From Eledone cirrhosa (taxonomy: Eukaryota): a stretch of DNA of 64,000 bases. The DNA lies in contig OZ024742.1 of the NCBI GenBank assembly GCA_964016885.1, positions 146,630,001-146,694,000 of the forward strand. Reading direction: 5' to 3'. Position 1 is the stretch's first letter. The number at the start of each line of letters is the position of its first letter. The notes below the pieces were generated by a model. That model was not told the DNA's origin. It worked only from the letters and a program-made list of their open reading frames with translations, and ran no database searches. Positions 22,985-64,000 of this stretch are shown piece after piece. Position numbers and translations under genes: made by a program.

Positions 22985-23318
22985 AAATTTGTTCTACATG
23001 GCTGAATACAATAAATGTCATCTAAGTTTTTTTAATATTAATGATAATATTCGATTCCTTTGCAATTATGCAAACAAGCCTCATTTTTAAAGCAATATCA
23101 TATATTTTCACTAGTTCTGATAGTTGGCAGGTGAACAGTGAGCTGTACTGATGAAGGGTAATACCCAGAAACATTAGTGTCTGCAGTTCTGCTTACATGC
23201 CAACACAAGAGCAAGAAAGCGGGGCTCATTCTACTGATATGGCTTTAAAAATGAGGCTTGTTTGCATGATTGCAAACGAATCAAATATTATTATTAATAT
23301 TCAAAAAACTCAGATTAC

Positions 23319-25685: not shown

Positions 25686-25730
<45 letters not shown>

Positions 25731-25888
25731 GAATTGGTGCTCTGAAATAGCGATGTATACATGAATATATATATAGTATATTTGGCAATATACTGTATGC
25801 TTAATTAAAAACATTTTGAAGACCTTGCGCTATTATTTTAAAGTAGTGACTATGTCACTTACTTCTTTTTTCAACAAACAAAGGGAGA

Positions 25889-25934
25889 TAAGCCGACAGA
25901 TCTGTTTCACACTGTTGGTGATCATCAGAGCTTA
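25889..25934 (-). ncRNA. Minimal type I hammerhead motif
   Basis: UAAGCU-CUGAUGA-uCACcaacaGUGu-GAAAC-AGAUCU-GUC-GGCUUA. Confidence 0.85.
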
Positions 25935-26103
25935 GCATTTGCCGATGTTTGTTGAAAATTATATAGGCTGGATTCTTATAGAATTCCAGTAATAATCAAG
26001 AACTGATTATACAGAGCGATTGCTGGTCCAGCAAAAATTGAAAATTAGGATTGGTGCTCTGAAATAGCGATGTATACCTGAATATATGTACATCGGCAAG
26101 TGC

Positions 26104-26149
26104 TAAGCTCTGATGATCACCAACAATGTGAAACAGATCTGTCAGTATA
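26104..26149 (+). ncRNA. Hammerhead motif, stems partly mutated
   Basis: Mirror of 25889-25934 with substitutions in stems I and II. Confidence 0.65.
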
Positions 26150-26649
26150 TCTCCCTTTGTTTGTTGAAAAAAGAAATAAGTGACATAGTCACTACTTTAA
26201 AGTAATAGCGCAAGGTCTTCAAAATGTTTTTAATTAAGCATACAGTATCTTGCCAAATATACTATACATATATTCATAAATATATACATATATACACTCA
26301 CACAAATGTAACCCCTTAGCATTTACATTACTCTATATTTACTATGGTATTTTCATGGTAAAGGCTTTGTTGCAAATAATTATCTTACATAATATCGAAT
26401 CTATGAGATTTTGGTATTATTTATTTTGAGAACAATACCTTAACATCAGTATCAGTGACTAGTTATGGCCAGTTTCAACAGAAAGAGGTGAGAGAATTCT
26501 GGCTGGATACAGCCGGTTTAAACGCTAAAGAGTTAAGGTATAACATATCAATTATGTTCTTTCTCTCTCTCTATATATATATACATATATCTATAAATTT
26601 GAAATATATATATATTGGAAAATGTGTGAAATCCTTGATACAGTTAGGT

Positions 26650-26830: not shown

Positions 26831-27565
<735 letters not shown>

Positions 27566-27615
27566 AAGAAAGAAGAGTAACATGGTTGGCTGTACAATAA
27601 GAGCTTTATTCAAAG

Positions 27616-27724
27616 TGCTGACAATTGTTTCGTTGATCTGGTGCGTCTAGAGTTCGCTAATCGCTTGATGCTGCGTCAATCGATCTGCAATACGTTGTTT
27701 ACAACGAGTCAACACATCAGAGCA
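27616..27724 (-). ncRNA. Hammerhead motif variant (CUGAUGU, long stem II)
   Basis: Mirror of 28745-28853. Confidence 0.68.
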
Positions 27725-28744
27725 AGTGGATATGAAAATAATACGCAAGGCATGGCTTTTATAGAGGAGTGGCGTTAAACCAACACAATAACATCAGTAA
27801 CAAACTAGCTAAATAGCGAACAATTAAAACAATAACATCAATAATAAAACGCGCATGGTAAATAAACAGAGAAGATACAGATGTATGAAGTGACATGTAA
27901 AATCTAAGATAGGGTACATTAAAAGTAGTAGTAATATTAAGAGAATGAGTAAAAGTAAAAGATAAAGGAATAAAATAATAAAATGTACTTAGAGTCAGAT
28001 TTTAGAATCTCTACTGAAAGTGCAGTTATGAGAGATTTAGATACAAATGAGCTGTGGGTCTGATAAATGAACGACAATAAAACGGAGATTAATTTATGGT
28101 TTAACAGATAATTGCTTGTAGTAGGTATTTTGCCTGTTGTACTATCTTAGTGAGATTGATGGAGGGAGTGTATAAAGATTTATGGTTCTATGGTAGCTGA
28201 TATTAAGTGAAATTGTGGATTCAGTATGTTAAGGTTTACGTAGTTCAGTCCTAATTTTGGGATTGCTGGTTCGAATCCTGGAGGTTTAAATCTCTATACA
28301 CTCCCTCCATCAATCTCACTAAGATAGTACAACAGGCAAAATACCTACTACAAGCATTTATCTGTCAAACCATAAATTAATCTCCGTTTTATTGTCGTTC
28401 ATTTATCAGACCCACAGCTCATTTGTATCTAAATCTCTCATAACTGCACTTACAGTAGAGATTCTAAAATCTGACTCTAAGTACATTTTATTATTTTATT
28501 CCTTTATCTTTTACTTTTCCTCATTCTCTTAATATTACTACTACTTTTAATGTACCCCATCTTAGATTTTACATGTCACTTCATACATCTGTATCTTCTC
28601 TGTTTATTTACCATGCGCGTTTTATTATTGATGTTATTGTTTTAATTGTTCGCTATTTAGCTAGTTTGTTACTGATGTTATTGTTTTGGTTTAACGCCAC
28701 TCCTCTATAAAAGCCATGCCTTGCGTATTATTTTCATATCCACT

Positions 28745-28853
28745 TGCTCTGATGTGTTGACTCGTTGTAAACAACGTATTGCAGATCGATTGACGCAGCA
28801 TCAAGCGATTAGCGAACTCTAGACGCACCAGATCAACGAAACAATTGTCAGCA
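28745..28853 (+). ncRNA. Hammerhead motif variant (CUGAUGU, long stem II)
   Basis: UGCU-CUGAUGU-GUUGA...UCAAC-GAAAC-AAUU-GUC-AGCA. Confidence 0.68.
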
Positions 28854-29221
28854 CTTTGAATAAAGCCCTTATTGTACAGCCAACCATGTTATTCTTCTTT
28901 CTTTAACTATTATTACTCCAAGTATAACCTGCATAGAAATTACCGCGAACTCGCTGCATCACTATGGAAGCATCTTGTTGAGTCAAACTAAGCCGTACGT
29001 TAAAACCATCCACAACACGGAGTACTCTAGCTGGACTACCTCTAATTGGATCACCTATAACGATAACTTGTTATCCCATATGTATATATATATACAAATA
29101 AAGATTCAGCGAGAATCGCATTTTCGGCGGGCAGGAAAAGCGAAGCGAAACGCAAAAATCATATATACACATATATTAAAATATAAATATTAATAAAATA
29201 GATGTTCTTTTAATCAATTAC

Positions 29222-29274
29222 ATTTTATTATACATATTTCGGATGTATAACAGTACGTCCTCATCAGACAAAAT
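29222..29274 (-). ncRNA. Minimal type I hammerhead motif
   Basis: Mirror of 31355-31407. Confidence 0.8.
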
Positions 29275-30486
29275 ATAATGATACAAGACATACCCTGAGA
29301 TGTTAAATGGTTAAGATTTAATCAAGGTAGTGATTAACCTAAGAGAAGATTTAACATATATACCCTAATTATGAGAAAATGCGAAAACGTAATAAATTCA
29401 TTAGAGAATGTGAGTAAGAAAAACATTTCTTAATGTAAACTGTTATAGAGATTTTAAAATGTATGATATCTAGGAAAACATCTCATGAATCATAACAGCC
29501 AGTGATAGCCACTGGAAAAGGATTTATAAAGAGGGAAAGATTAGGGGGGGGGGGGGGGGTGATATATGCAGAATGAATTTTTTTCCGAAAGTTAAACGGT
29601 TAAATTTGAAAATATTTAATTTATAATATTAGGGTGAAGACTCAAGATTTCAGGATTATTTGCTGGTTATTTATATATTAGTTTTATAAATTCAATAAGT
29701 GTGTTATCATTTCTAAGCTTCTGAGTTTTATGAGGGTAACGTTTAAAGGATTTAGCTGGCACATCAAGAATGAAATATTATACTGTTGATTATTTTCCTA
29801 AATTTAAACTTTAACAAAGATACCAACATATTAGGTATGTAAAGCTTCTGAAGTATTTATTGTTAGAAATATTTAAATAACGATTATGTATATAGATTAC
29901 ATATATATAATTACATACATATTATAATACATTATATTATATTACATACATATTATAACACAGTACAACGATTATGCATATAGACTACATACATATAATT
30001 ACATACATATTATAATACATTATATTATAAATAAGAGATTAAAAACGCAGCAAAAATTCACATTTATATATAAGTTTGAATCTGTTTTAAATTTTAGATT
30101 TTAAAGTGCAGTAAATATATAAAAATATATATATACATATACTCTATTATATTATACTATAAATAAGAGATCAAAAACGCATTAAAAATTCACAGTTATA
30201 GATAAGTTCCGTAAAGATGTATCGATTGTGTATTAAACTAAAATTTAATAGAAATTTAACTTAAATTTTAGTTTAATACACAATCAATACATCTTTACGA
30301 AACTTATCTATAACTGTGAATTTTTAATGAGTTTTTGATCTCTTATTTTTGTATAATATAATATAGTATATGTATATATTTTTTTAAAATATATTTACTG
30401 CACTTTAAAATCTAAAATTTAAAACAGATTCAAACTTATATATAAATGTGAATTTTTGCTGCGTTTTTTATCTCTTATTTATAATA

Positions 30487-30667: not shown

Positions 30668-31354
30668 TTATTTTTATCTTCGTCGTTATTATTTACCTAA
30701 AATATACTGGCTCATTAATATATATCTATATACATAATCGTTATTTAAATATTTATAACAATAAGTACTTCAAAAGCTTTACATACCTAATATGTTGGTA
30801 TCTTTGTTAAAGTTTAAATTTAGGAAAATAATCAACAGTATAATATTTCATTCTTGATGTGCCAGCTAAATCCTTTAAATGTTACCCTCATAAAACTCAG
30901 AAGCTTAGAAATGATAACACACTTATTGAATTTATAAAACTAATATATAAATAACCAGCAAAAAATCCTGAAATCTTGAGTCTTCACCCTAATATTATAA
31001 ATTAAATATTTTCAAATTTAACCGTTTAACTTTCGGAAAAAATCTCATTCTGCATATATCACCCCCCCCCCCCTTATCTTTCCCTCTTTATAAATCCTTT
31101 TCCAGTGGCTATCACTGGCTGTTATGATTCATGAAATGTTTTCCTAGATATATTGTAGTATCATACATTTTAAAATCTCTATAACAGTTTACATTAAGCA
31201 ACGTTTTTCTTACTCACACATTCTCTAATGAATTTATTACGTTTTCGCATTTTCTCATAATTAGGGTATATATGTTAAATCTTCTCTTAGGTTAATCACT
31301 ACCTTGGTTAAATCTTAACCATTTAACATCTCAGGGTACGTCATGTATCATTAT

Positions 31355-31407
31355 ATTTTGTCTGATGAGGACGTACTGTTGTACATCCGAAATATGTATA
31401 ATAAAAT
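31355..31407 (+). ncRNA. Minimal type I hammerhead motif
   Basis: AUUUUGU-CUGAUGA-GGAcGUACuguuGUACaUCC-GAAA-UAUGUA-UA-AUAAAAU. Confidence 0.82.
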
Positions 31408-31536
31408 GTAATTGATTAAAAGAACATCTATTTTATTAATATTTATATTTTAATATTAATAACTCCGGAAAATTATTTTGTAAAACTCATACTGTAAAAC
31501 TCGTTCTTTGACATAATCATTGAATATTGTTTAACA

Positions 31537-47850: not shown

Positions 47851-47916
<66 letters not shown>

Positions 47917-47918
<2 letters not shown>

Positions 47919-49650
47919 CGAAAGGCTACTAAATGAGGAGAATAAATGGGAGAAGGACAGTCTCCCCCACATCGACCCAATAGAGGGACTAGCAGTGTTA
48001 GTTGAAGGTAGTATAATAGGTAAGGTAATCAAAGATATGAAGACGGGTAAGGCGGCTGGGCCTTCGGAAATAGTTGCTGAGATGCTGAAAGCCTCTGGAA
48101 CGGTGGGACACACCATGGTCACCCGGATAGTAAACCAAGTCATACAGAATGGGGTTGTTCTGAAGGACTGGCATAGCAGCATCATCATTAACTGTTACAA
48201 GGGTAAAGGAGATGCCCTAGATAGGAGTAACTATAGAGGCATTAAAGTAATCGACCAGGTCATGAAGGTCACGGAAAAAGTAATAGTGCAACTAATCAGA
48301 GAGCGAATTGATCTAGATGAAATGCAGTTCGGGTTTGTGTCAGACAAAAGTACCACAGACGCTCTTTTCATTGTACGACAACTACAGGAGAAGTACCTAG
48401 CTAAAAGTAAACCCCTATACTTAGCTTTTGTCGACTTGGAGAAAGCCTTCGACAGAGTCCCCCGTTCCATTATCTGGTGGGCTCTTAGAAAACTAGGTGT
48501 TGATGAATGGCTTGTGAGAGCTATAGAAGCCATGTATAAAGAAACAGTCAGTAAGGTTAGAATTAACAACGAATATAGAGAAGAGTTTAGCGTAAAAGTT
48601 GGTGTTCATCAGGGCTCTGTTCTTAGACCCCTACTATTTATTATTGCCCTTCAGGCTATAACAGTGGAGTTCAAGACCGGCTGCCCATGGGAACTCCTAT
48701 ACGCAGATGATCTAACGCTCATAGCTGAATCAATGGCCGAGCTAGAGAAGAAATTCCAAACATGGAAGCACAGCCTAGAATCAAAAGGCCTTAAAATTAA
48801 CCTGGCTAAGACTAAAGTTCTAGTTTGTAGGAAAGAAAATAAGGCGCCGGTCCCTTCCGTGAAATGGCCATGCTCAGTGTGTAGGAAAGGCATAGGTAGA
48901 AACTCCATTTTATGTTCCAAATGCAAAGTATGGGTGCATAAAAGATGTAGTGGGATCACAGGTAAGCTAACTAAGAACATAGATTTTACATGTGGCCGGT
49001 GCTCTGGTGCAATAAGTAGCAGCAAGTGCCCACAAATACTAGCTCTTTCAATTGCGCGGAGGGTTCTATAGAAATAGTGGACAGCTTCCGTTACCTGGGT
49101 AACAAAATCAGCAGTGGGGGAGGGTGCTCTGAAAGTACAGTAGCTAGAGTCAGAACTGGGTGGAAAAAGTTCAGAGAGCTTATACCACTATTAGCCGCTA
49201 AAGGGTTCTCTCTAAAAATGAAAGGCAGGCTGTATGATGCCTGCATACGAACAGCAATGTTGCATGGCTGTGAGACCTGGGCATTGTGTGCAGAGGATAT
49301 ATGCAGATTAGAGAGGAATGAAGCTTGCATGCTCTGCTGGATGTGTAATAGTAATATACGCGAACGGCAAAGCATAAACGAACTAAGGGAAACATTAGAA
49401 ATAAGAGGGATCAGATGTTGTTTACTCGAGAGACGGCTACGTTGGTATGGTCACGTGATGCGCATGAAAGACGACAGCTGTATAAAAAAGTGCAGAGTAA
49501 TAAAGATAGACGGTAGCCACGGAGTAGACCCAGAAAAACCTGGGACGACCTGATAAATTCCGACCTCACACACTTACACCTCTCCAAGACAATGTCACTG
49601 GACCGAGATCTTTGGCGGTACTCAGTAATAGAGAAGACCCGCCTTACCTG
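47917..49650 (+). pseudogene. RTE reverse transcriptase with internal PHD-like finger
   Basis: KAAGPS, NYRGIK, MQFGF, DLEKAFDRV, VHQGSVL, YADD and a C4HC3 motif; frameshifts near 49030 and 49530. Confidence 0.9.
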
Positions 49651-54152: not shown

Positions 54153-54356
54153 CTGCTGCAAAATAAATAGATAGTTTTTGGTGGTAGGTCTGCTGACTCA
54201 GGGATAATCCACTTCTTTACTAATATCTTTCCCCAAAGAATGGGGTTACAATAATTTAAACAAAACAGCAATGGCATCAAACTCTCCAGTCACTGAGTGT
54301 GAGTACTGCTTATTCCTCCAGACTTTTTTCTTCTTATTATTATTATTATTATTATT

Positions 54357-55736
54357 AAAAACTGGGACGAGGTGACGAGCAGGGTGGCTTCTCTCACCCA
54401 GAAATGGGCCGAGAGGAAGCTGTCCCTGAAAGGTCGAGCAGAGGTGGCTAACGCGTACATCGCGTCCGTCATCTGCTACCGCCTGACCGTCGTACCTTGT
54501 CCTAAGCCCCGCCTGACTGCGCTGGAGCGTTTGCTCTTTCGCTTTGTGTGGAAGGGACGCACTCCGATGGTCAGGCGGTCCATCTGTTGTCAACACCCAC
54601 TACGTGGAGGGCTGGGCATGCCGTGGCTGATCATGCACAGACATGCGCTCAGGCTACGACATCTCCAACCTCTTCCTCGACGGTGATCAGGTGTGGTCGC
54701 CGTTTGCTAGACGCGTCTTTCCCCAGCTCGTTTCCTTGATGGAGCTGCAGTCCTGGGTCAAGCGAAGACCGAGAGGGAGCACTTGGAGACTGGAATGTCT
54801 TCAGGCGCTCACAGCCCTCGACCAATCGGGCAATGTGATCGGTGGAAACTCCACCTCGGCGTTCTATAGAGGATTAGTGGAGGGGAAGAGCGACGACGTA
54901 CTTGGAGAAACTCTAGGCGTCGACGAAAATCAACTAGCCAATCTCTTCGGAAGGACTTTCGGGCCGGGGCCCATGGACAACTTCCAGAAATCCCTGGCCT
55001 GGCAGTGCTACCGAGGAGCCTTGCCAGTTCGGGATAAACTCTACAGGCATGGAGGAGCCGTCAGCCGGGCATGTCCGAGATGCACGCAGGGTGACAAACC
55101 GTCCTGCATGCACTCGTCCAGTGTCCGAGAATTGCTGACTTGTGGGTTTATGTCGAACACCTGCTGTCGCGTGTAAGACGGATCCGGTTATCAGCTGAGT
55201 CCATCGTGAGGTTTGCCCCACCCTCTTCCTTTAGCCGGGAAGGGCAGGCAGTTTTTATCTGTCTGGTGGCCATGGCGAAAGAGATAGTATGGTGGACACG
55301 TTTGAAAGGGCTGAAGGCGAGCACTTACCTCTTCGGTGATGCCCTGATTAACTTTTTCAAATTTCATTTGAAAAGGAAAATCAGGGTAGAGAGGGAAGTG
55401 CTCTCTTCCCAGCATTTTGTTGAAAGATGGGTGAGAGAAGCAAGAATGGCCCGAGTGAATGGGCCTACTCTGAGTATGTGTCTGTAAATTAAAGGTGGAA
55501 AACTGGGAGAGGGTACTTGCCCTGGTGGTCAGGGTCACTGTGGCCTTTTAATAGGCTTTCTCCACAAATGTCCCTCCGAAGTCTCACCCCTATTGGGGAA
55601 TTATTTCATTCTTATTTTTATTACATCCTCTGTTTTTGTTTTTTACACGCAGAAATACCCATTTGTACCGTCCTGTATTGGCCTGTACTGTCCTTAATGT
55701 CTACTTTATGTAAACCCTTGTGGTTAATAAAGAAAG
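54357..55736 (+). mobile_element. 5'-truncated Tx1 copy in (ATT)n
   Basis: Near-identical to 60824-62207; ATT runs on both sides. Confidence 0.95.
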
Positions 55737-55755
55737 TATTATTATTATTATTATT

Positions 55756-56303
55756 CGAGGAGGAAGGACAGGCGGTTTTCATCTGCCTGGTGGCCATGGC
55801 GAAAGAGATTGTGTGGTGGACAAGGTTAAAAGGGTTAAAGACAGACACTTTCCTCTTCGGTGAATCCCTAATTAACTTTTTCAAGTTTCACTTGAAGAGG
55901 AAAATCAGGGTGGAGAGGCAAGTGCTGCTTTCTAGCAAGTTTGTTGAAAGGTGGGTGAATGTAACGAGAATGGTCTGAGTGAACGGGACCACTCTAAATA
56001 TACGCTTGTAGTTTGAGAGATGGAAAAATTGAGAGAGGGCGCTTGCCCTGCTGGTCAGGGTGGCCGTGGTCTTTTGTGTGGTTTTCGCCACGAGTAATCC
56101 TCGGAGGTTTCCTCCCTATTGGGGGAATTTTTCATTGTTTCAATTTTCATTTTTAATGTTTATATATATATGTTTCTATGTCTTTTTTTTTTCTTTTCTT
56201 ATATAAATAATAAAAATATTTACATGCACAAAACCCACATCGTACCGTCCTGTACCGTCTGTAATGTTTTTCTTGATGTCAGCCCTTGTGGCCAATAAAG
56301 AAA

Positions 56304-56305
<2 letters not shown>
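55756..56305 (+). mobile_element. Short 5'-truncated copy of a related Tx1 subfamily in (ATT)n
   Basis: Encodes EGQAVFICLVAMAKEIVWWTRLKG..; diverged 3' UTR; ATT runs on both sides. Confidence 0.92.
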
Positions 56306-56362
<57 letters not shown>

Positions 56363-56576
56363 GGCGACCTACGTAGTAAATCGTATCATCGTGAGCTCCG
56401 CAAAGGTTTGTTGTTTTCGTTTGTTAAAAATTGCCATTTATGGAAAATTTTTATTGTTAACTGTATATAAGCGCACATACATTGTTTTCCGAAAAGGACA
56501 CTCAAAAAGATTGGGGCCTTGAGCCCAAAATTTAAACTTTTATAATTATCAAACAAAAATTTTTCTTTGAAACATC

Positions 56577-58501
56577 ATGGCTGACTCAGATTCACTCCTT
56601 TCTCACAAACTAACACCTCACACCGACACCACCATTGTAAATATTACTACGTTTGCCAACACTAAAAATATAAGCAGTAGCAATATTTTAAATTTGTCTC
56701 AGGCAGACATTCATTTCCCGCCATTACCAATGACTGCAGGTGTTAAAGCCGCCCCCCGCGACAACTACCACCCACACCGCGACAACAGAAACAAAAGAAA
56801 AAAATTAATTAACTCGTGATGTCGAAATGAATTCAACCAAAATGAACGCTTTCACACAGAACACCACTGACGCCACCACCACCACAACTGAAACTAAAAT
56901 TAATAATAACAAAATTAACGATAACAACAACAGCAACAATGACATTAAGAAAACCACCCTGAGTTTTGCCAGAGTAGCAAAACAGTGCGAAGCATTTCAG
57001 GTAACTCATGAGGAATTAGAAGAAGCCCAAAAAATGGTAAAGAAAGATGGGTACAGGGCCAGCCTCACCACCACCCTCCCCCACCTAATAAAATGGAGCA
57101 TCAGCGCCTATGCACCGTGTCTTATCGAACAATTAATATAAAATCGCGCCGAGTGGAACGGGCATCCGAGTCCCAAATCCAAAAAGCTTTGGGACATGTG
57201 TGGGCAAAAAACCCCCACATCAGACGTAGGCAGAAGTATGGAACCGTGGACGTGTTCTTTGAAACACCACAGGAGGCTAGAGAACACTCCATGGCCCCAT
57301 TAAGAAGTGACGACTTCACACTCGTCCCAAGCTATTGTGGCCAGAGACTCGTAAAGATCAGGGTCACCCACGTTCCACCAGCCATCGAAATTACCTGGCT
57401 AATAGCTGCCGTCCTCGCCGGCATCGAAGCCAACACCAAGATAATAGAAATAGCGAAAGAAAAGCAGGAGAACTGGTCCGGATCTGGGATGGAGCTCCTG
57501 ATCCAAGCGAACCAAAAAAGCATTGAGGAGATCCCAGAGGTAATAGACCTCACTGACGGCAGCCACCTCACCGTAATTGTCGAGGGCAGAAGGCCTAGGT
57601 GTGTCGTTTGTGGTGAAGGAACCCACCTAAGGGCTTTCTGCCCTCAGGCTAAAAGGATGAGGCCACCTCTCCTACCCACCCCAGTGAGTCAACCATCAAC
57701 ACCACCAGCAGCAGAGATGGCAGCAACAACAGAAGCAACTGTAACAGCAACAACCCCAGCAAGAGTAGCAAAACCAACACCACCACCACCCAACGCGCCA
57801 GAACTAGCACCAGCGCCTACACCATCCACCACGCCACAATCAAAACTAACGCCTATGGAGGATTTTCCACTCCCCGGCCTATCACAACTGGAGACAGATT
57901 GTGACGACGGGGAGTGGGAAACGGTATCAGAAAAAAGGAAAAAAGAAACCAAAAAAGAAAAAATTCTCTTCCTTCCCCCTCCAAAAACAAAATACAGAGG
58001 GAAACAAATAAACTATCAAACAAAAAAGTTAGGACAGACATACCACCATCCACACCAGCATCACCAACCCCATCACCCCAAACACCAACACCATCACCAT
58101 CATTAACCCCAACACCACCATCATCTACACCACAAAAGTCACCAAAATACGAAACAGAAACAAACCCACAACAAACGCAAACAAAACAAAACAACCAAAA
58201 CGATACACACTACACAGCATTAAATTTGAACAACAACCAATTATTACACTACATCCAACACAACACCAGCATCACAGAAAAAGACTACACATCAATCCAA
58301 AAGTTCACACCACCTCCATACATACAAATCACTCGCATCACACAGAAAACGTACATGACACTAAAACAAAAATTCCCCAAAGATATCGGAGACTTCCGAC
58401 AAGCACTCTCCAGGAGGATTTATAAGGACATCCTTCCTGAGGAGGCCACAAGCAGTGAAAAGGATGGAGAAACCGTCCTTCCTCTACGAGAAGTAAGGTA
58501 A
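56577..58501 (+). pseudogene. Tx1 ORF1 (CCHC zinc knuckle), frameshifted
   Basis: SFARVA motif, GRRPRCVVCGEGTHLRAFCP knuckle and Pro/Thr-rich linker. Confidence 0.82.
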
Positions 58502-58535
58502 GTGGTCTTTCCCATCTTTTCCACTCCATTTCAAC

Positions 58536-61500
58536 ATGACCTCACTCAGAATAGGCAGCATAAATGCGCGTGGCTTGGGGTCGTCATGGAAGCAGGGCCA
58601 CCTGCTCAACGACATCAGGTCACTAAACATAGATGTAGTGGCCATCAGCGAGACCAGAATCTCCGAAGCACGGGCCTTCGCACCGATCTTCGGCGGCTAC
58701 GATGTGTACGCATCTCCCAGCCGTCCGGGATCGGGGGGAGGAGTTGCTGTGCTTTTTCGGGGAGGTTTGGATCTTGCCATACGGGCCATCTTCCTGGACC
58801 CAAAAGGTAAGTTGGTGGTGCTGGACGTGACCAGCGGAGACGGGCAAGCTTTCAGGTTAGTGGCCGTCTATGCCCCGACAGGAGCAGGGCGGCCTGATTT
58901 CTTCCGGCGTCTGGAGACCTTTCTTGGAACGTCCCGCTCTTTAGTGTTAGTGGGCGACTGGAACGGCATCTTAGATGCACGCTGGGACTGTGTGGGATTA
59001 GTGGATAGTGGAGGAGGGTGCAAGAGTCTCACCAACCTGCTCAGGCGTTTTGAACTGTCTGACAGGTACCGATTGGATTTCGCGAATGTGCCAATGTGGA
59101 CTTGGACAAATCGTATTGGGTCATCCAGATGATATCTAGATAGAGTATTTTGTAGGGAAATAGATAGGTCTAGCATAGGCTGTCCACAATTCAAGATAGT
59201 CAGCTACACGGACCACAATTTCGTGATCTGTGTGCTTGACTTAGATAGGCTTCATAGACGAGGAAACGGCTACTGGAAGCTAAACGCGTCCTTACCAGCG
59301 CGCAAGGCCTACAGAGACTGGATTAGCGAACTAGTTAAGCGAGCGTTGGCGGGGGCCATCGTCAACAACAAGTGGTGGTTTGCTCTGTAAAGAGCAATTA
59401 GAATAGAGTCCATTAGGTTTAGTAAGGCTTTAGCAATAGAGAAAAATAGAGCAGAGGGAGAATTAGTTAGAACATTAGACGAGGCGCTTAGCAAAGGCAT
59501 CGCGACCGACGTACTTGCGGCGAAATTGGCCCTTGACCAATTCTTCAATGCAAAGCACGAAGGCTGCGTTGTCAGAGCTAGGGTGCGTGCTCTCAGACAC
59601 GAGGGGACGAAAGCCGTTCAATGGCCCCAAGTGGTGGAGGCGCGTCGTGGCAACAAAGCCACGATCCGTTGTTTGGTGGACCACGACGGGCGCATGCTAC
59701 TCGATCCCGGGCAAATGTGTGAAGCTTTTCAGCGACACTTCGCTCAGCTGTTCGGGGGCAGCGGCGGGCCGGATCGAGGGATGGACTTTAGTGTCTACCT
59801 CGACGGACTGCCGTGGCTCTCGGCCAGTGAGGCGGAATGTTGCGAAAAGCCGATAACAGCCGCTGAAGTACGGGAGGCAATGACTGGCTGCACAATGGGT
59901 AAATCGCCTGGTTTGGATGGTCTGCCCTATGAACTTTACGTACAGATGCCAGACTTGTTCGGAGGCCTCTTGGCGGACGTCTACTGCAACGGGCAACAGA
60001 ACGGGAGAATTCCCAGTTCTGTGAGCCGAGGAGCTGTGGTGCTGCTGAGAAAGGATCCGAACAAGGAGGATAACATAGATAATTTCAGGCCCATAACTCT
60101 GTTAAACACAGAGTTCAAGATTTTGGCCAAGGTGCTAGCAAAGAGGTTGGCGCTTGTCGTTGGTGGTCTGGTGGGAGAGACGAGATATGCGCCATTCCCG
60201 ACAGATCCATCCACGACAACCTCCACCTCATGCGATACATCGTAGAGAGGGTAGCTAGGGAACCTGACACGGGTGGGTCGTTGATCAATTTAGATCAGTC
60301 GAATGCTTTCAATAGGGTCGACCATCGTTACATAGCGGCAGTCCTGAGGGCGGCTGGCTTTGGGTCCGTCTTCAGAGGCTGGATCGCTGCCATGCACAGC
60401 GACATCTGCTCTGTGGTGAGAGTGAACGGTCACCTTTCGGAACCGTTCAACATCATGCGCTCGGTCCGCCAAGGATGTCCCCTCTCGTCCCTCTTGTACG
60501 TATTGACTCTCAAGCCATTACTGCACAAACTGGAGACGTTGAGGGGGGTCCCGCGCGAACTAGGATGCGGAAGATCCGTGTCAGCATATGCAGACGATGT
60601 CACCGTAGAGGTGTCGAACGCCAAACACATCGAGGCGATCGGCACTACTCTAAGAGAATACGAAGCGGTGACAGGAGCAATGATCAACCAGGAAAAGTCA
60701 GTGGGCCTGCAGCTCGGCACCTGGAGAGGCAGGTCCATGCCGTCCAACAGCGTCGTCGGACGCTGGACGGACGGACCGGTTAAATTGCTAGGGGTCTGGT
60801 TCGGTCCAGACCTCCAGGCGGACAAAAACTGGGACGAGGTGACGAGCAGAGTGGCTTCTCTCACCCAGAAATGGGCCGAGAGGAAGCTATCCCTGAAAGG
60901 TCGAGCGGAGGTGGCTAACGCGTACATCGCGTCCCTCATCTGCTACCGCCTGACCGTCGTACCTTGTCCTAAGCCCCGCCTGACTGCGCTGGAGCGTTTG
61001 CTCTTTCGCTTTTTGTGGAAGGGACGCGCTCCGATGGTCAAGCGGTCCATCTGCTGTCAACACCCGCTACGTGGAGGGCTGGGCATGTCGTGGCTGATGA
61101 TGCGCAGACATGCGCTCAGGCTATGACATCTCCAACCTCTTCCTCGACGGTGATCAGGTGTGGTCGCCGTTTGCTAGACACGTCTTTCCCCAGCTCGTTT
61201 CCTTGACGGAGCTGCAGTCCTGGGTCAAGCGAAGACCGAGAGGGAGCGCTTGGAGACTGGAATGTCTTCAGGCGCTCATAGCCCTCGACCAATCGGGCAA
61301 TGTGATCGGTGGAAACTCCACCTTGGCGTTCTATAGGGGATTAGTGGAGGGGAAGAGCGACGACGTACTTGGAGAAACTCTAGGCGTCGACGAAAATCAA
61401 CTAGCCAATCTCTTCGAAAGGACTTTCGGGCCGGGGCCTATGGACAACTTCCAGAAATCCCTGGCCTGGCAGTGCTACCGGGGAGCTTTGCCAGTTCGGG

Positions 61501-61955
61501 ATAAACTCTACAGGCATGGAGGTGCCGTCAGCCGGGCATGTCCGAGATGCGCGCAGGGTGACGAAACCGTCCTGCACGCACTCGTCCAGTGTCCGAGCAT
61601 TGCTGACTTGTGGGTTTATGTCGAACACCTGCTGTCACCTGTAGGATGGATCCAGCTATCAGCTGAGTCCATCGTGAGGATTTCCCCGCCCTCTTCCTTT
61701 AGCCGGGAAGGGCAGGCAGTTTTTATCTGTCTGGTGGCCATGGCGAAAGAGATAGTATGGTGGACACGTTTGAAAGGGCTGAAGACGAGCACTTACCTCT
61801 TCGGTGATGCCCTGATTAACTTTTTCAAATTTCATTTGAAAAGGAAAATCAGGGTAGAGAGGGAAGTGCTCTCTTCTCAGCATTTTGTTGAAAGATGGGT
61901 GAGAGAGGCAAGAATGGCCCGAGTGAATGGGCTTACTCTGAGTATGTGTCTGTAA
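58536..61955 (+). pseudogene. Tx1 ORF2 APE plus RT
   Basis: SINARGL, GDWN, GYWKLN, KSPGLDG, RQGCPLS, YADD, CPRC..H..C; stops near 59130, 59388 and 61124, frameshift near 60185. Confidence 0.94.
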
Positions 61956-62205
61956 ATTAAAGGTGGAAAACTGGGAGAGGGTACTTGCCCTGGTGGTCAG
62001 GGTCACTGTGTCCTTTTAATGGGCTTTCTCCACAAATGTCCATCCGAGGTCTCACCCCTATTGGGGAATTTTTCATCGTTATTTTTTTGTTACATTCTCT
62101 CTTTTTGTTTTTTTACACGCAGAAATACCCATTTGTACCGTCCTGTATTGTCCTGTACTGTCCTTAATGTCTACTTTATGTAAACCCTTGTGGTTAATAA
62201 AGAAA

Positions 62206-62282
<77 letters not shown>

Positions 62283-62283
<1 letters not shown>

Positions 62284-62410
62284 CTGAGAGGGTCGTGGGG
62301 ACAGAGTCCTCAAACACTCCCTCCAGCAGGCCGTGTCAAAAGCAACTGTCTCCAACTGATTCAGCTGAATCCCTAAGCATGACCAGCCAAGCACATGGAT
62401 GGTATCCAGA
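62283..62410 (-). mobile_element. Extreme 3' end of a Rex3/Expander-like RTE whose tail is (TAA)n
   Basis: Reverse strand reads LDTIHVLGWSCLGIQLNQLETVAFDTACWRECLRTLSPRPSQE* directly into TAATAA. Confidence 0.65.
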
Positions 62411-62741
62411 CTTACCACATAAAAGAAATGTCTTAAAAAAATATATATGTACTGGCTAGCAGGATTAAAATATTATAGACTATTTTACGACAACCTCAAT
62501 GATAAGTTTATGATGAATGTGAAAGCGGAGAGTTTATAATGAAGCAAAGCTGGAGAAAAAGCTTTTCAACCGTACTAACTCGAAGATAAGAATATTTCTA
62601 AATATATTACTTCACATAGTGAAAGCGAGTTAAAAGATTAAGATACTACAAGTTATATATTTGGATAGCCTACATCATGAATGTGTCATAAAACTGAAGA
62701 TATTGGCATTAAAGAGCTGAGCAGAAGATAACAGACATATA

Positions 62742-63040
62742 TATATTAAAGTGTTAAACAATATTCAATGATTATGTCAAAGAATGAGTTTTACAGTAGA
62801 TTGGAAGCACTCAACGAGTAAAATAATTTTCTGAAGTTATTAATATTAAAATATAAGTATTAATAAAATAGATGTTCTTTTGATCAATTACATTTTATTA
62901 TACATATTTCGGATGTACAACAGTACGTCCTCATCAGACAAAATATAATGATACATGACATACCCTGAGATGTTAAATGGTTAAGATGTAATCAAGGTAG
63001 TGATTAACCCGAGAGAAAATTTTACTTATATCCTATTTAT
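62742..63040 (-). mobile_element. Terminal fragment of HHR family 29172-31541
   Basis: 62842-63020 is near-identical to 29172-29350; includes the longer tail. Confidence 0.88.
62892..62944 (-). ncRNA. Minimal type I hammerhead motif
   Basis: Same motif as 31355-31407. Confidence 0.82.
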
Positions 63041-63080
63041 ATTTTAATATATATATATGTACACGCACATATATATATAC

Positions 63081-63124
<44 letters not shown>

Positions 63125-63140
63125 ATTATACATATATATG

Positions 63141-63182
<42 letters not shown>

Positions 63183-63185
<3 letters not shown>

Positions 63186-64000
63186 TAATTTAATATATCA
63201 ACTAACATAGGCGCACAGATGCACGTCCATGCCAGCAAATACACAGGTTATGTCATAGTACCTAGGTGGTTCAATGCAGGAGGGTGCAGAACAATAATAT
63301 AAAAGACGTAAAATAAGAAAATATTTTTTAAAAAATTTTAAAAAAATTTTTTACTTACTTACTTAAATTTTCACTCCAACTAATTAGTTTCTGCAATGGG
63401 ATAAAGACAGTTACATAATCCAACTGTCGAGAATTCATTGCGTCATCAGGGAGTCTATTCTCAGCTGAGCCTCCAGGCAATGCGCGGACACTAGCGGCTC
63501 ATATAAAAATAATAATTCGGTAGAAAGAACAGCTAGGCGAGGACTGGATTCTATGTACTGAAATTCTCACTGCTTCCAGTCAAATGTCCGATTCTAAAGA
63601 ATCAATCACGTGACATAGAGGCTAGTTAGAAGGAATGGGATGGTAAGATGACTGACGCCTACTAACACCCCAAAAAAAATTTTGAAGTGGTTTTGGCAGG
63701 TTTGCTCGACAAATCAGTGATTTGGAGATAAATATAGATAATTTAATATATCAACTAACATAGGCGCACAGATGCACATCCATGCCAGCAAATACATCCC
63801 ATTCCTTCTAACTAGCCTCTATGTCACGTGATTGATTCTTTAGAATCGGACATTTGACTGGAAGCAGTGAGAATTTCAGTACATAGAATCCAGTCCTCGC
63901 CTAGCTGTTCTTTCTACCGAATTATTATTTTTATATGAGCCGCTAGTGTCCGCGCATTGCCTGGAGGCTCAGCTGAGAATAGACTCCCTGATGACGCAAT
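63183..64000. mobile_element. Retrozyme-like HHR element: 553-bp unit plus partial second unit (-), then an inverted arm running off the window
   Basis: 63183-63243 is repeated at 63736-63796; 63437-63642 mirrors 63795-64000. Confidence 0.87.
63373..63454 (-). ncRNA. Type I hammerhead motif with extended stem II
   Basis: ACUCC-CUGAUGA-cGCAAUG..GACAGUU/AACUGUC..CAUUGCa-GAAAC-UAAUUA-GUU-GGAGU. Confidence 0.85.

Follow-up and report, generated by a model that had tools for sequence, protein, structure and literature searches.

Paired outer ends and a cut-site footprint in a 553-nt hammerhead family of Eledone cirrhosa favour priming from both ends of a DNA break

The right end of the window (the whole stretch of DNA analysed, 64,000 nt, G000:C3:146,630,001-146,694,000 in a 3.0-Gb genome) carries part of an element with a full size of 2,616 bp, in which two arms of a 553-nt hammerhead unit lie head-to-head within (TA)n (Table 1). 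Unit positions were numbered U1 to U553 in the hammerhead sense, with U1 at window position 63796. The element is flanked by (TA)n on both sides and overruns the window by 1.8 kb, its far end lying at G000:C3:146,695,798. Its right arm spans U155 to U500 (2,004 nt, of which 1,798 nt lie outside the window) and consists of 3.6 tandem units up to end A, followed by (TA)n(GA)n; the CUGAUGA of its next hammerhead is found at 63988-63994. The inverted arms at 63437-63642 and 63795-64000 were 100% complementary over 206 nt. GC content was 0.33 over 62001-64000, and no open reading frame of at least 150 aa was found in 63183-64000.

An earlier note on this DNA had described the unit and a 61-nt direct repeat at 553-nt spacing. 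Both were confirmed (63183-63243 and 63736-63796, one mismatch in 61 nt), but the element proved larger than noted, with the right arm running past the window. The inverted arm does begin here where the repeat restarts. This is locus-specific: only 6 of 222 arm 5' ends lay near U1, and a junction at unit 1 was rejected as a fixed feature. Because the inner junction varies among copies, the wrap-around seen where the arm starts is a chance feature of this locus. Nor do the 61 nt constitute the tail, which comprises the ~115 nt between ends A and B.

Table 1. Features of the 553-nt hammerhead element within the window.
Feature	Window positions	Strand
(TA)17 target microsatellite plus GAG, separating target from end B	63146..63182	.
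Left arm, U1 to U61: a full 553-nt unit plus 61 nt (614 nt in all); its outer end (3' in the RNA), at 63183, is end B	63183..63796	-
Tail, ~115 nt, start site A (unit 500, window 63297) to start site B (unit 61-65)	63183..63296	-
Hairpin GUUC-UGCA/UGCA-GAAC, 4 nt 3' of site A	63269..63292	-
Type I hammerhead, predicted	63373..63454 (63454-63373)	-
Small hairpin CAAATCAGTGATTTG (CAAAU-CACUG-AUUUG), 8-12 nt 3' (RNA sense) of end B	63710..63724	-
Long tail hairpin with two compensatory pairs, unit 1-51; its end lies ~10 nt 5' of site B	63746..63796	-
Head-to-head arm junction, unit 1 vs unit 155, 2-nt overlap CA	63795..63796	.
Right arm start, unit 155 onward	63795..64000	+

The element is real, abundant and recently active. 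A DNA search returned 184 matches in the best 35 of 938 candidate places, and a 22-nt motif from the 3' part of the hammerhead occurred in 9,169 exact copies against 0 for the reversed control, so the repeat is not a chance occurrence. The family is present on many chromosomes, in subfamilies ~70-100% alike. Copies finish at either of two constant places in the unit, A (~500) and B (~61-65), in keeping with the earlier expectation of non-random end points. Exact patterns joining a unit end to a microsatellite occurred 1,012 times with end A (U500) and 1,184 times with end B (U61-65); controls gave 0. The same two ends were seen in older subfamilies, ~70-88% alike to this copy (20 loci). A TA run lay within 40 nt of 219 of 222 A or B ends, among them 55/55 in loci picked by similarity alone; target-site duplications, if present, would be masked by the (TA)n. 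UAU(AU) microhomology to the TA target was present at both ends. End B carried extra GA repeats in 15/78 two-armed copies and AGAT repeats in 5, which suggests stutter at initiation. An origin of the end-B (GA)n in a target duplication was rejected, since only 1 of the 15 copies had (GA)n on the A side.

Arms were mapped in 135 loci, comprising the best 35 matches and 100 loci along C1 taken from the end patterns; the C1 sample was picked for one end only, not for its partner. Two-armed copies with both outer ends intact paired an A end with a B end in 78/78 cases. Seven further two-armed calls had one atypical end, at least 2 of them being artefacts produced by the merging of arms or by the edge of the locus. 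Single arms numbered 59 (29 ending at A, 30 at B), with one unclassified. Outward-facing end pairs called from coordinates alone over C1 0-246.6 Mb, a set overlapping the 78, were A+B in 22/22 (p=2e-7). One locus (L100) holds two mirror copies that probably stem from one event. A and B arms were alike in length (medians 535 and 539). In two loci (L162 and L164; G000:C1:139,513,360 and C1:142,713,865), two A ends point toward each other from either side of a short TA run, with 39 bp between them. The earlier note had missed that two start sites exist and are used as a pair. Such pairing is likely the work of a borrowed Penelope-type enzyme that copies the RNA at each of the two ends of a DNA break. 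In our judgement the copies are probably made through twin target-primed reverse transcription, by a Penelope-like element (PLE) protein acting in trans on a tandem hammerhead repeat.

The tail contains two conserved hairpins with 3 compensatory pairs in all. The hairpin 3' of site A was 100% paired across the cells of 10 representatives, with one compensatory pair, and the long tail hairpin has a second copy at 63193-63243. Both start sites were predicted to lie in mostly unpaired stretches (0.74 and 0.63, against 0.37 overall). The small hairpin at the junction, previously proposed as a landmark for priming, was present where described, with a predicted pair probability of 0.9 in this subfamily, but the covariation check gave no compensatory change in 5 subfamily representatives. 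It shrinks to ~4 bp in old subfamilies. A hairpin of this kind lies no more than 13 nt away from 17% of unit positions.

Inner junctions varied: the arms overlapped by 1-4 nt in 30 copies and by at least 5 nt in 14, met bluntly in 8 and were separated by insertions in 26. One arm was contained in the other (within 20 nt) in 67/78 copies, and near-palindromic junctions were present in 14/78. Both observations would suit a single priming event in which the growing cDNA, or else an antisense RNA, forms a fold-back that is then copied, an endonuclease resolving the second end at the other fixed site. Such a route accounts directly for A+B pairing; self-priming has been proposed for PLEs in passages of PMC3846280, and a tail from EN-mediated resolution in passages of PMC8557442. 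We nevertheless consider it unlikely. Nesting fails in 11/78 copies, and the arms of two of the 78 (L072 and L114) share no base, although a later central deletion of the palindrome could also yield non-nested arms. Fold-back must run in both orders because the A arm is the longer in 41/78, and single-armed copies end at A or at B. Both sites correspond to RT start sites in vitro in the relevant passages of PMC11167929, and the (GA)n/AGAT stutter at B and the microhomology at both ends resemble priming.

Arms exceeded one unit in 116/222 cases and two units in 43/222, in agreement with the tandem or circular template suggested earlier; the longest arm measured 7,339 nt, and arrays reached 13 units. 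The cross-arm distance was 0.5%, against a typical between-element distance of ~4%. In one copy (L037) the arms differed at two sites, and variants with a period of 2-4 were found in L034, L037 and L039; a single monomer circle is therefore not the sole template. Short direct re-copies of 10-30 nt were observed at arm 5' ends in L107, L117, L044 and L122, with three copies of the end-B start in L107, and suggest repeated RT restart.

The differing variants of the L037 arms would also fit two separate RNPs, one per DNA end, with the start site set by end geometry (first versus second nick) rather than by one shared RNA. An arm's own partner was the closest of all elements in only 18/36 cases, and both arms were longer than one unit in 23/78 copies, which on one RNA needs strand displacement. 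Set against this, the two arms almost always match in subfamily, in a family whose subfamilies are 70-100% alike, and L032 and L041 carry private variants common to all units of both arms. In 14/78 copies (permutation mean 3.4) the two arms stopped no more than 8 nt apart on the unit, so that shared 5' ends are above chance. We regard independent RNPs as quite improbable.

The intact hammerhead with palindromic stem III reported earlier was found as described, on the minus strand. It comprises stem I (ACUCC/GGAGU), CUGAUGA, GAAA and the cleavage triplet GUU, with the palindrome AACUAAUUAGUU at 63378-63389 as stem III. Cleavage is predicted after GUU, between 63378 and 63377 (unit 419/420). GUU is a weak cleavage triplet. 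Stem II is flanked by one extra nucleotide on each side, a C after A9 and an A before G12. An Rfam scan at the gathering threshold did not detect the hammerhead. Its core (C after A9, A before GAAA, CUAAUUAG, UU) was intact in 273/308 copies. In 10 subfamily representatives the core and stem III were invariant, and stem II covaried (GCAAUG/CAUUGC, GAAAGG/CCUUUC, GUAAGG/CCUUAC) through compensatory changes that left 96-100% of cells paired. The covariation score was reached by 0/500 shuffles, a control that ignores relatedness. Folding of the 553-nt unit gave z = -4.3 against shuffles; in the monomer, the hammerhead fold was predicted to lie 2.5 kcal/mol above an alternative, inactive fold. Passages of PMC4209133 list an extra base between positions 9 and 10.1, a G10.1-C11.1 pair and a palindromic helix III as traits of PLE-type hammerheads. 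All three were present in 10/10 representatives, together with the extra A before G12. The 12-nt palindrome would permit the dimeric hammerhead form described in that source.

Arm 5' ends fell at U418-421, the predicted cut, in 9/222 cases (expected 1.6 under a uniform and 3.1 under a local model, p=0.0045) and in 7/116 long arms (0.8 expected). Both arms start there in one copy (L087). This pile-up suggests linear RNAs starting at a cut while retaining uncut hammerheads, and speaks indirectly for cleavage in vivo by these seemingly weak hammerheads. It also bears on a DNA-level origin, be it a MITE-like element with terminal inverted repeats, a Helitron-like rolling circle or a recombination-amplified satellite, in which the hammerhead would be incidental. 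Inverted ends and tandem arrays are what such elements would show, and periodic variants could stem from unequal crossover after insertion. The two ends, however, are offset by a constant 115 nt, truncation at the 5' end is variable, 5' ends pile up at the RNA cut site, single-armed copies are common, the hammerhead covaries, and autonomous PLEs have the same layout. An origin of this kind is hardly credible.

The near-obligate A+B pairing and the cut-site footprint together favour twin priming from both DNA ends. Arrays would be transcribed and partly self-cleaved by dimeric hammerheads, giving linear multimers, some perhaps circularised. A Penelope-like RT/GIY-YIG protein would cleave a (TA)n tract on both strands, and cDNA would be primed from both DNA ends, one at RNA site A and one at site B. 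One protein dimer may hold the ~115-nt tail, with one active site per start. The two cDNAs would run toward the RNA 5' end and terminate randomly, at the hammerhead cut or within the A/T tract lying behind that cut, after which repair would join them head-to-head; where one cDNA survived, a single-armed copy ending at A or B would result. We infer the protein partner, the dimer, the cleavage and the circles. Twin priming of L1 likewise yields head-to-head arms with both outer ends primed and a short-microhomology junction, although there the second site is variable and the arms barely overlap. In the 553-nt family, both sites are fixed and each arm can hold several units.

Two unrelated families in the window were compared. 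A 317-nt hammerhead family (window 25724-26285; 3,329 candidate places) has ends ~30 nt apart; its stem II is likewise flanked by one extra base on either side, and its stem III is a palindrome. As stated earlier, it shares no sequence with the 553-nt family, nothing being found beyond 13-15-nt A/T matches. A hand tally of 25 copies gave 17 long+short, 1 long+long (G000:C1:383,782,263-383,783,235) and 7 unresolved. The common mechanism previously proposed for the two families gains from this result: the 317-nt family obeys the same end rule (17/18 resolved), and a shared mechanism is likely. The head-to-head family at 27559-29080 (2,244 candidate places) has two ends 170 nt apart, giving a 170-nt tail, and showed one of each end in 11/11 two-armed copies with both ends intact, a tally in which two pairs were read across neighbouring loci. 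This element lies beside a long (TA)n and carries a hammerhead-like motif with core CUGAUGU at 28745-28853 (+) and its mirror.

Further repeats were noted. Another hammerhead-like motif family (CUGAUGAGGAC...GAAA) occurs at 62900-62940 (-), ~29230-29270 (-) and ~31360-31400 (+); 29173-29911 is inverted relative to 30714-31456, and one copy sits directly left of the 553-nt element. A compact type I hammerhead at 23140-23189 (+) and in L176/L258 represents a further family, and several other distinct hammerhead families lie near PLE loci (L247, L251, L255, L264, L265). GC-rich LINE fragments ending in (ATT)n cover 57000-62280 and 54300-56370, with RVT_1 and zf-RVT at 60083-61952. More RT fragments lie at 1402-2979 and, together with a PHD finger, at 47854-49068.

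The genome encodes PLE proteins with RT and GIY-YIG domains (844-1096 aa) and a CxxxxCxxC linker, a feature that passages of PMC8557442 tie to Neptune, Nematis and Naiad. L246, L247 and L248 contain long open PLE frames (938, 844 and 1,096 aa, respectively), and a scan of the L246 pLTR returned no canonical hammerhead. Ten autonomous PLE loci had inverted matches; in the 3 informative, Neptune-like ones (L251, L257, L265) the tail was one-sided in 3/3. No autonomous PLE carrying the 553-nt unit as pLTR was present among 50 GIY-YIG loci, drawn from the 150 scored of 10,596 candidates. A partner PLE was likewise absent from 155 family loci, from the 5' flanks of single-armed copies and from 20 'solo' hammerhead loci, all of which are older subfamily copies. 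Two candidates were rejected as separate insertions, L183 on the opposite strand and L254 beyond a long TA tract. The failure to find a partner PLE, the long+long copy of the 317-nt family, the differing L037 arms, the weak GUU triplet and the predicted preference of the monomer for an inactive fold count against twin priming, as do the lack of a strand difference in start-site use and of RNA reads stopping at the hammerhead cut in the in vitro work of PMC11167929.

We classify the 553-nt family as a non-LTR retrozyme, i.e. a non-autonomous PLE. It combines one type I hammerhead per unit and dispersed, non-coding, low-GC head-to-tail 553-nt repeats with an inverted 5'-truncated arm, a one-sided tail (78/78) and a microsatellite target (219/222). 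No RT plus GIY-YIG endonuclease frame was found inside any family copy examined, and the family is not classed as an autonomous EN+ PLE. The architecture is not novel, being known for PLEs and non-LTR retrozymes; the element class, the tail and two RT start sites are already published. Non-LTR retrozymes have been proposed to be non-autonomous PLE derivatives (passages of PMC7229834 and 10.64898/2026.07.22.740005). Those of animals (Cervera and de la Pena 2020, PMC7229834) are described there as dispersed, low-GC, non-coding head-to-tail repeats, a few hundred bp long, with a type I hammerhead per unit, and units of 51-972 bp are given in a passage of Li, Clavereau and Pollet 2026 (10.64898/2026.07.22.740005). 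The retrozyme passages compared mention no fixed paired ends, no inverted arms and no microsatellite targeting, all of them features of the family described here, and the words 'inverted' and 'microsatellite' occur 0 times in PMC7229834. Unlike in those retrozymes, the PLE link of the 553-nt family lies in insertion anatomy and not in pLTR homology.

EN+ Neptune-like PLEs, in passages of Craig et al. 2021 (PMC8557442) and Arkhipova et al. 2013 (PMC3846280), share 5' truncation, partial tandems, an inverted 5'-truncated copy, an often one-ended tail, a microsatellite bias and a hammerhead in the repeat. The 553-nt family differs in having no ORF and in its tail length (~115 nt versus 30-40 in PLEs). 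Pairing was counted here (78/78), whereas those passages use 'often' or 'optionally'. Closest in biochemistry is PAc (Poseidon of Anolis), studied in vitro by Frangieh et al. 2024 (PMC11167929). In passages of that work, two internal RT starts flank a tail near a stem-loop, targets are AT-rich, the protein cuts and extends both strands, and a dimer is predicted. Neither a strand-specific start site nor homology between template and cut DNA was seen there, and no RNA reads stopped at the hammerhead cut; in the 553-nt family, by contrast, the ends are strictly complementary (A+B), UAU(AU) microhomology to the TA target is present and 5' ends are enriched at the cut. Figures S1-S2 of PMC11167929 and the bioRxiv supplements may bear on end pairing. 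Within the open-access literature we found no count of obligate end pairing, no PLE twin-priming model, no such retrozyme anatomy and no published cut-site footprint.

The origin of PLE inverted repeats and one-sided tails is called open in PMC8557442, as is retrozyme mobility in 10.64898/2026.07.22.740005, in the passages concerned. The value of this family lies in its countable end rule and cut-site footprint. It offers thousands of natural products, a 553-nt template and two mapped starts, and the same genome holds intact candidate RT/EN proteins, so that twin priming and fold-back could be separated in one assay. A broader reading is that Penelope-type transposition is obligate twin priming, in which one dimer binds the structured tail of one RNA and cDNA starts at both tail borders, one per DNA end; that copy 5' ends record hammerhead cleavage in vivo; and that the family has long been an independent RNA parasite, with no pLTR-matched parent left. 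We hold this reading to be evenly poised between right and wrong. If true, the obligate twin-priming rule alone would account for three features at once: tail, inverted pLTR and tandem arrays.
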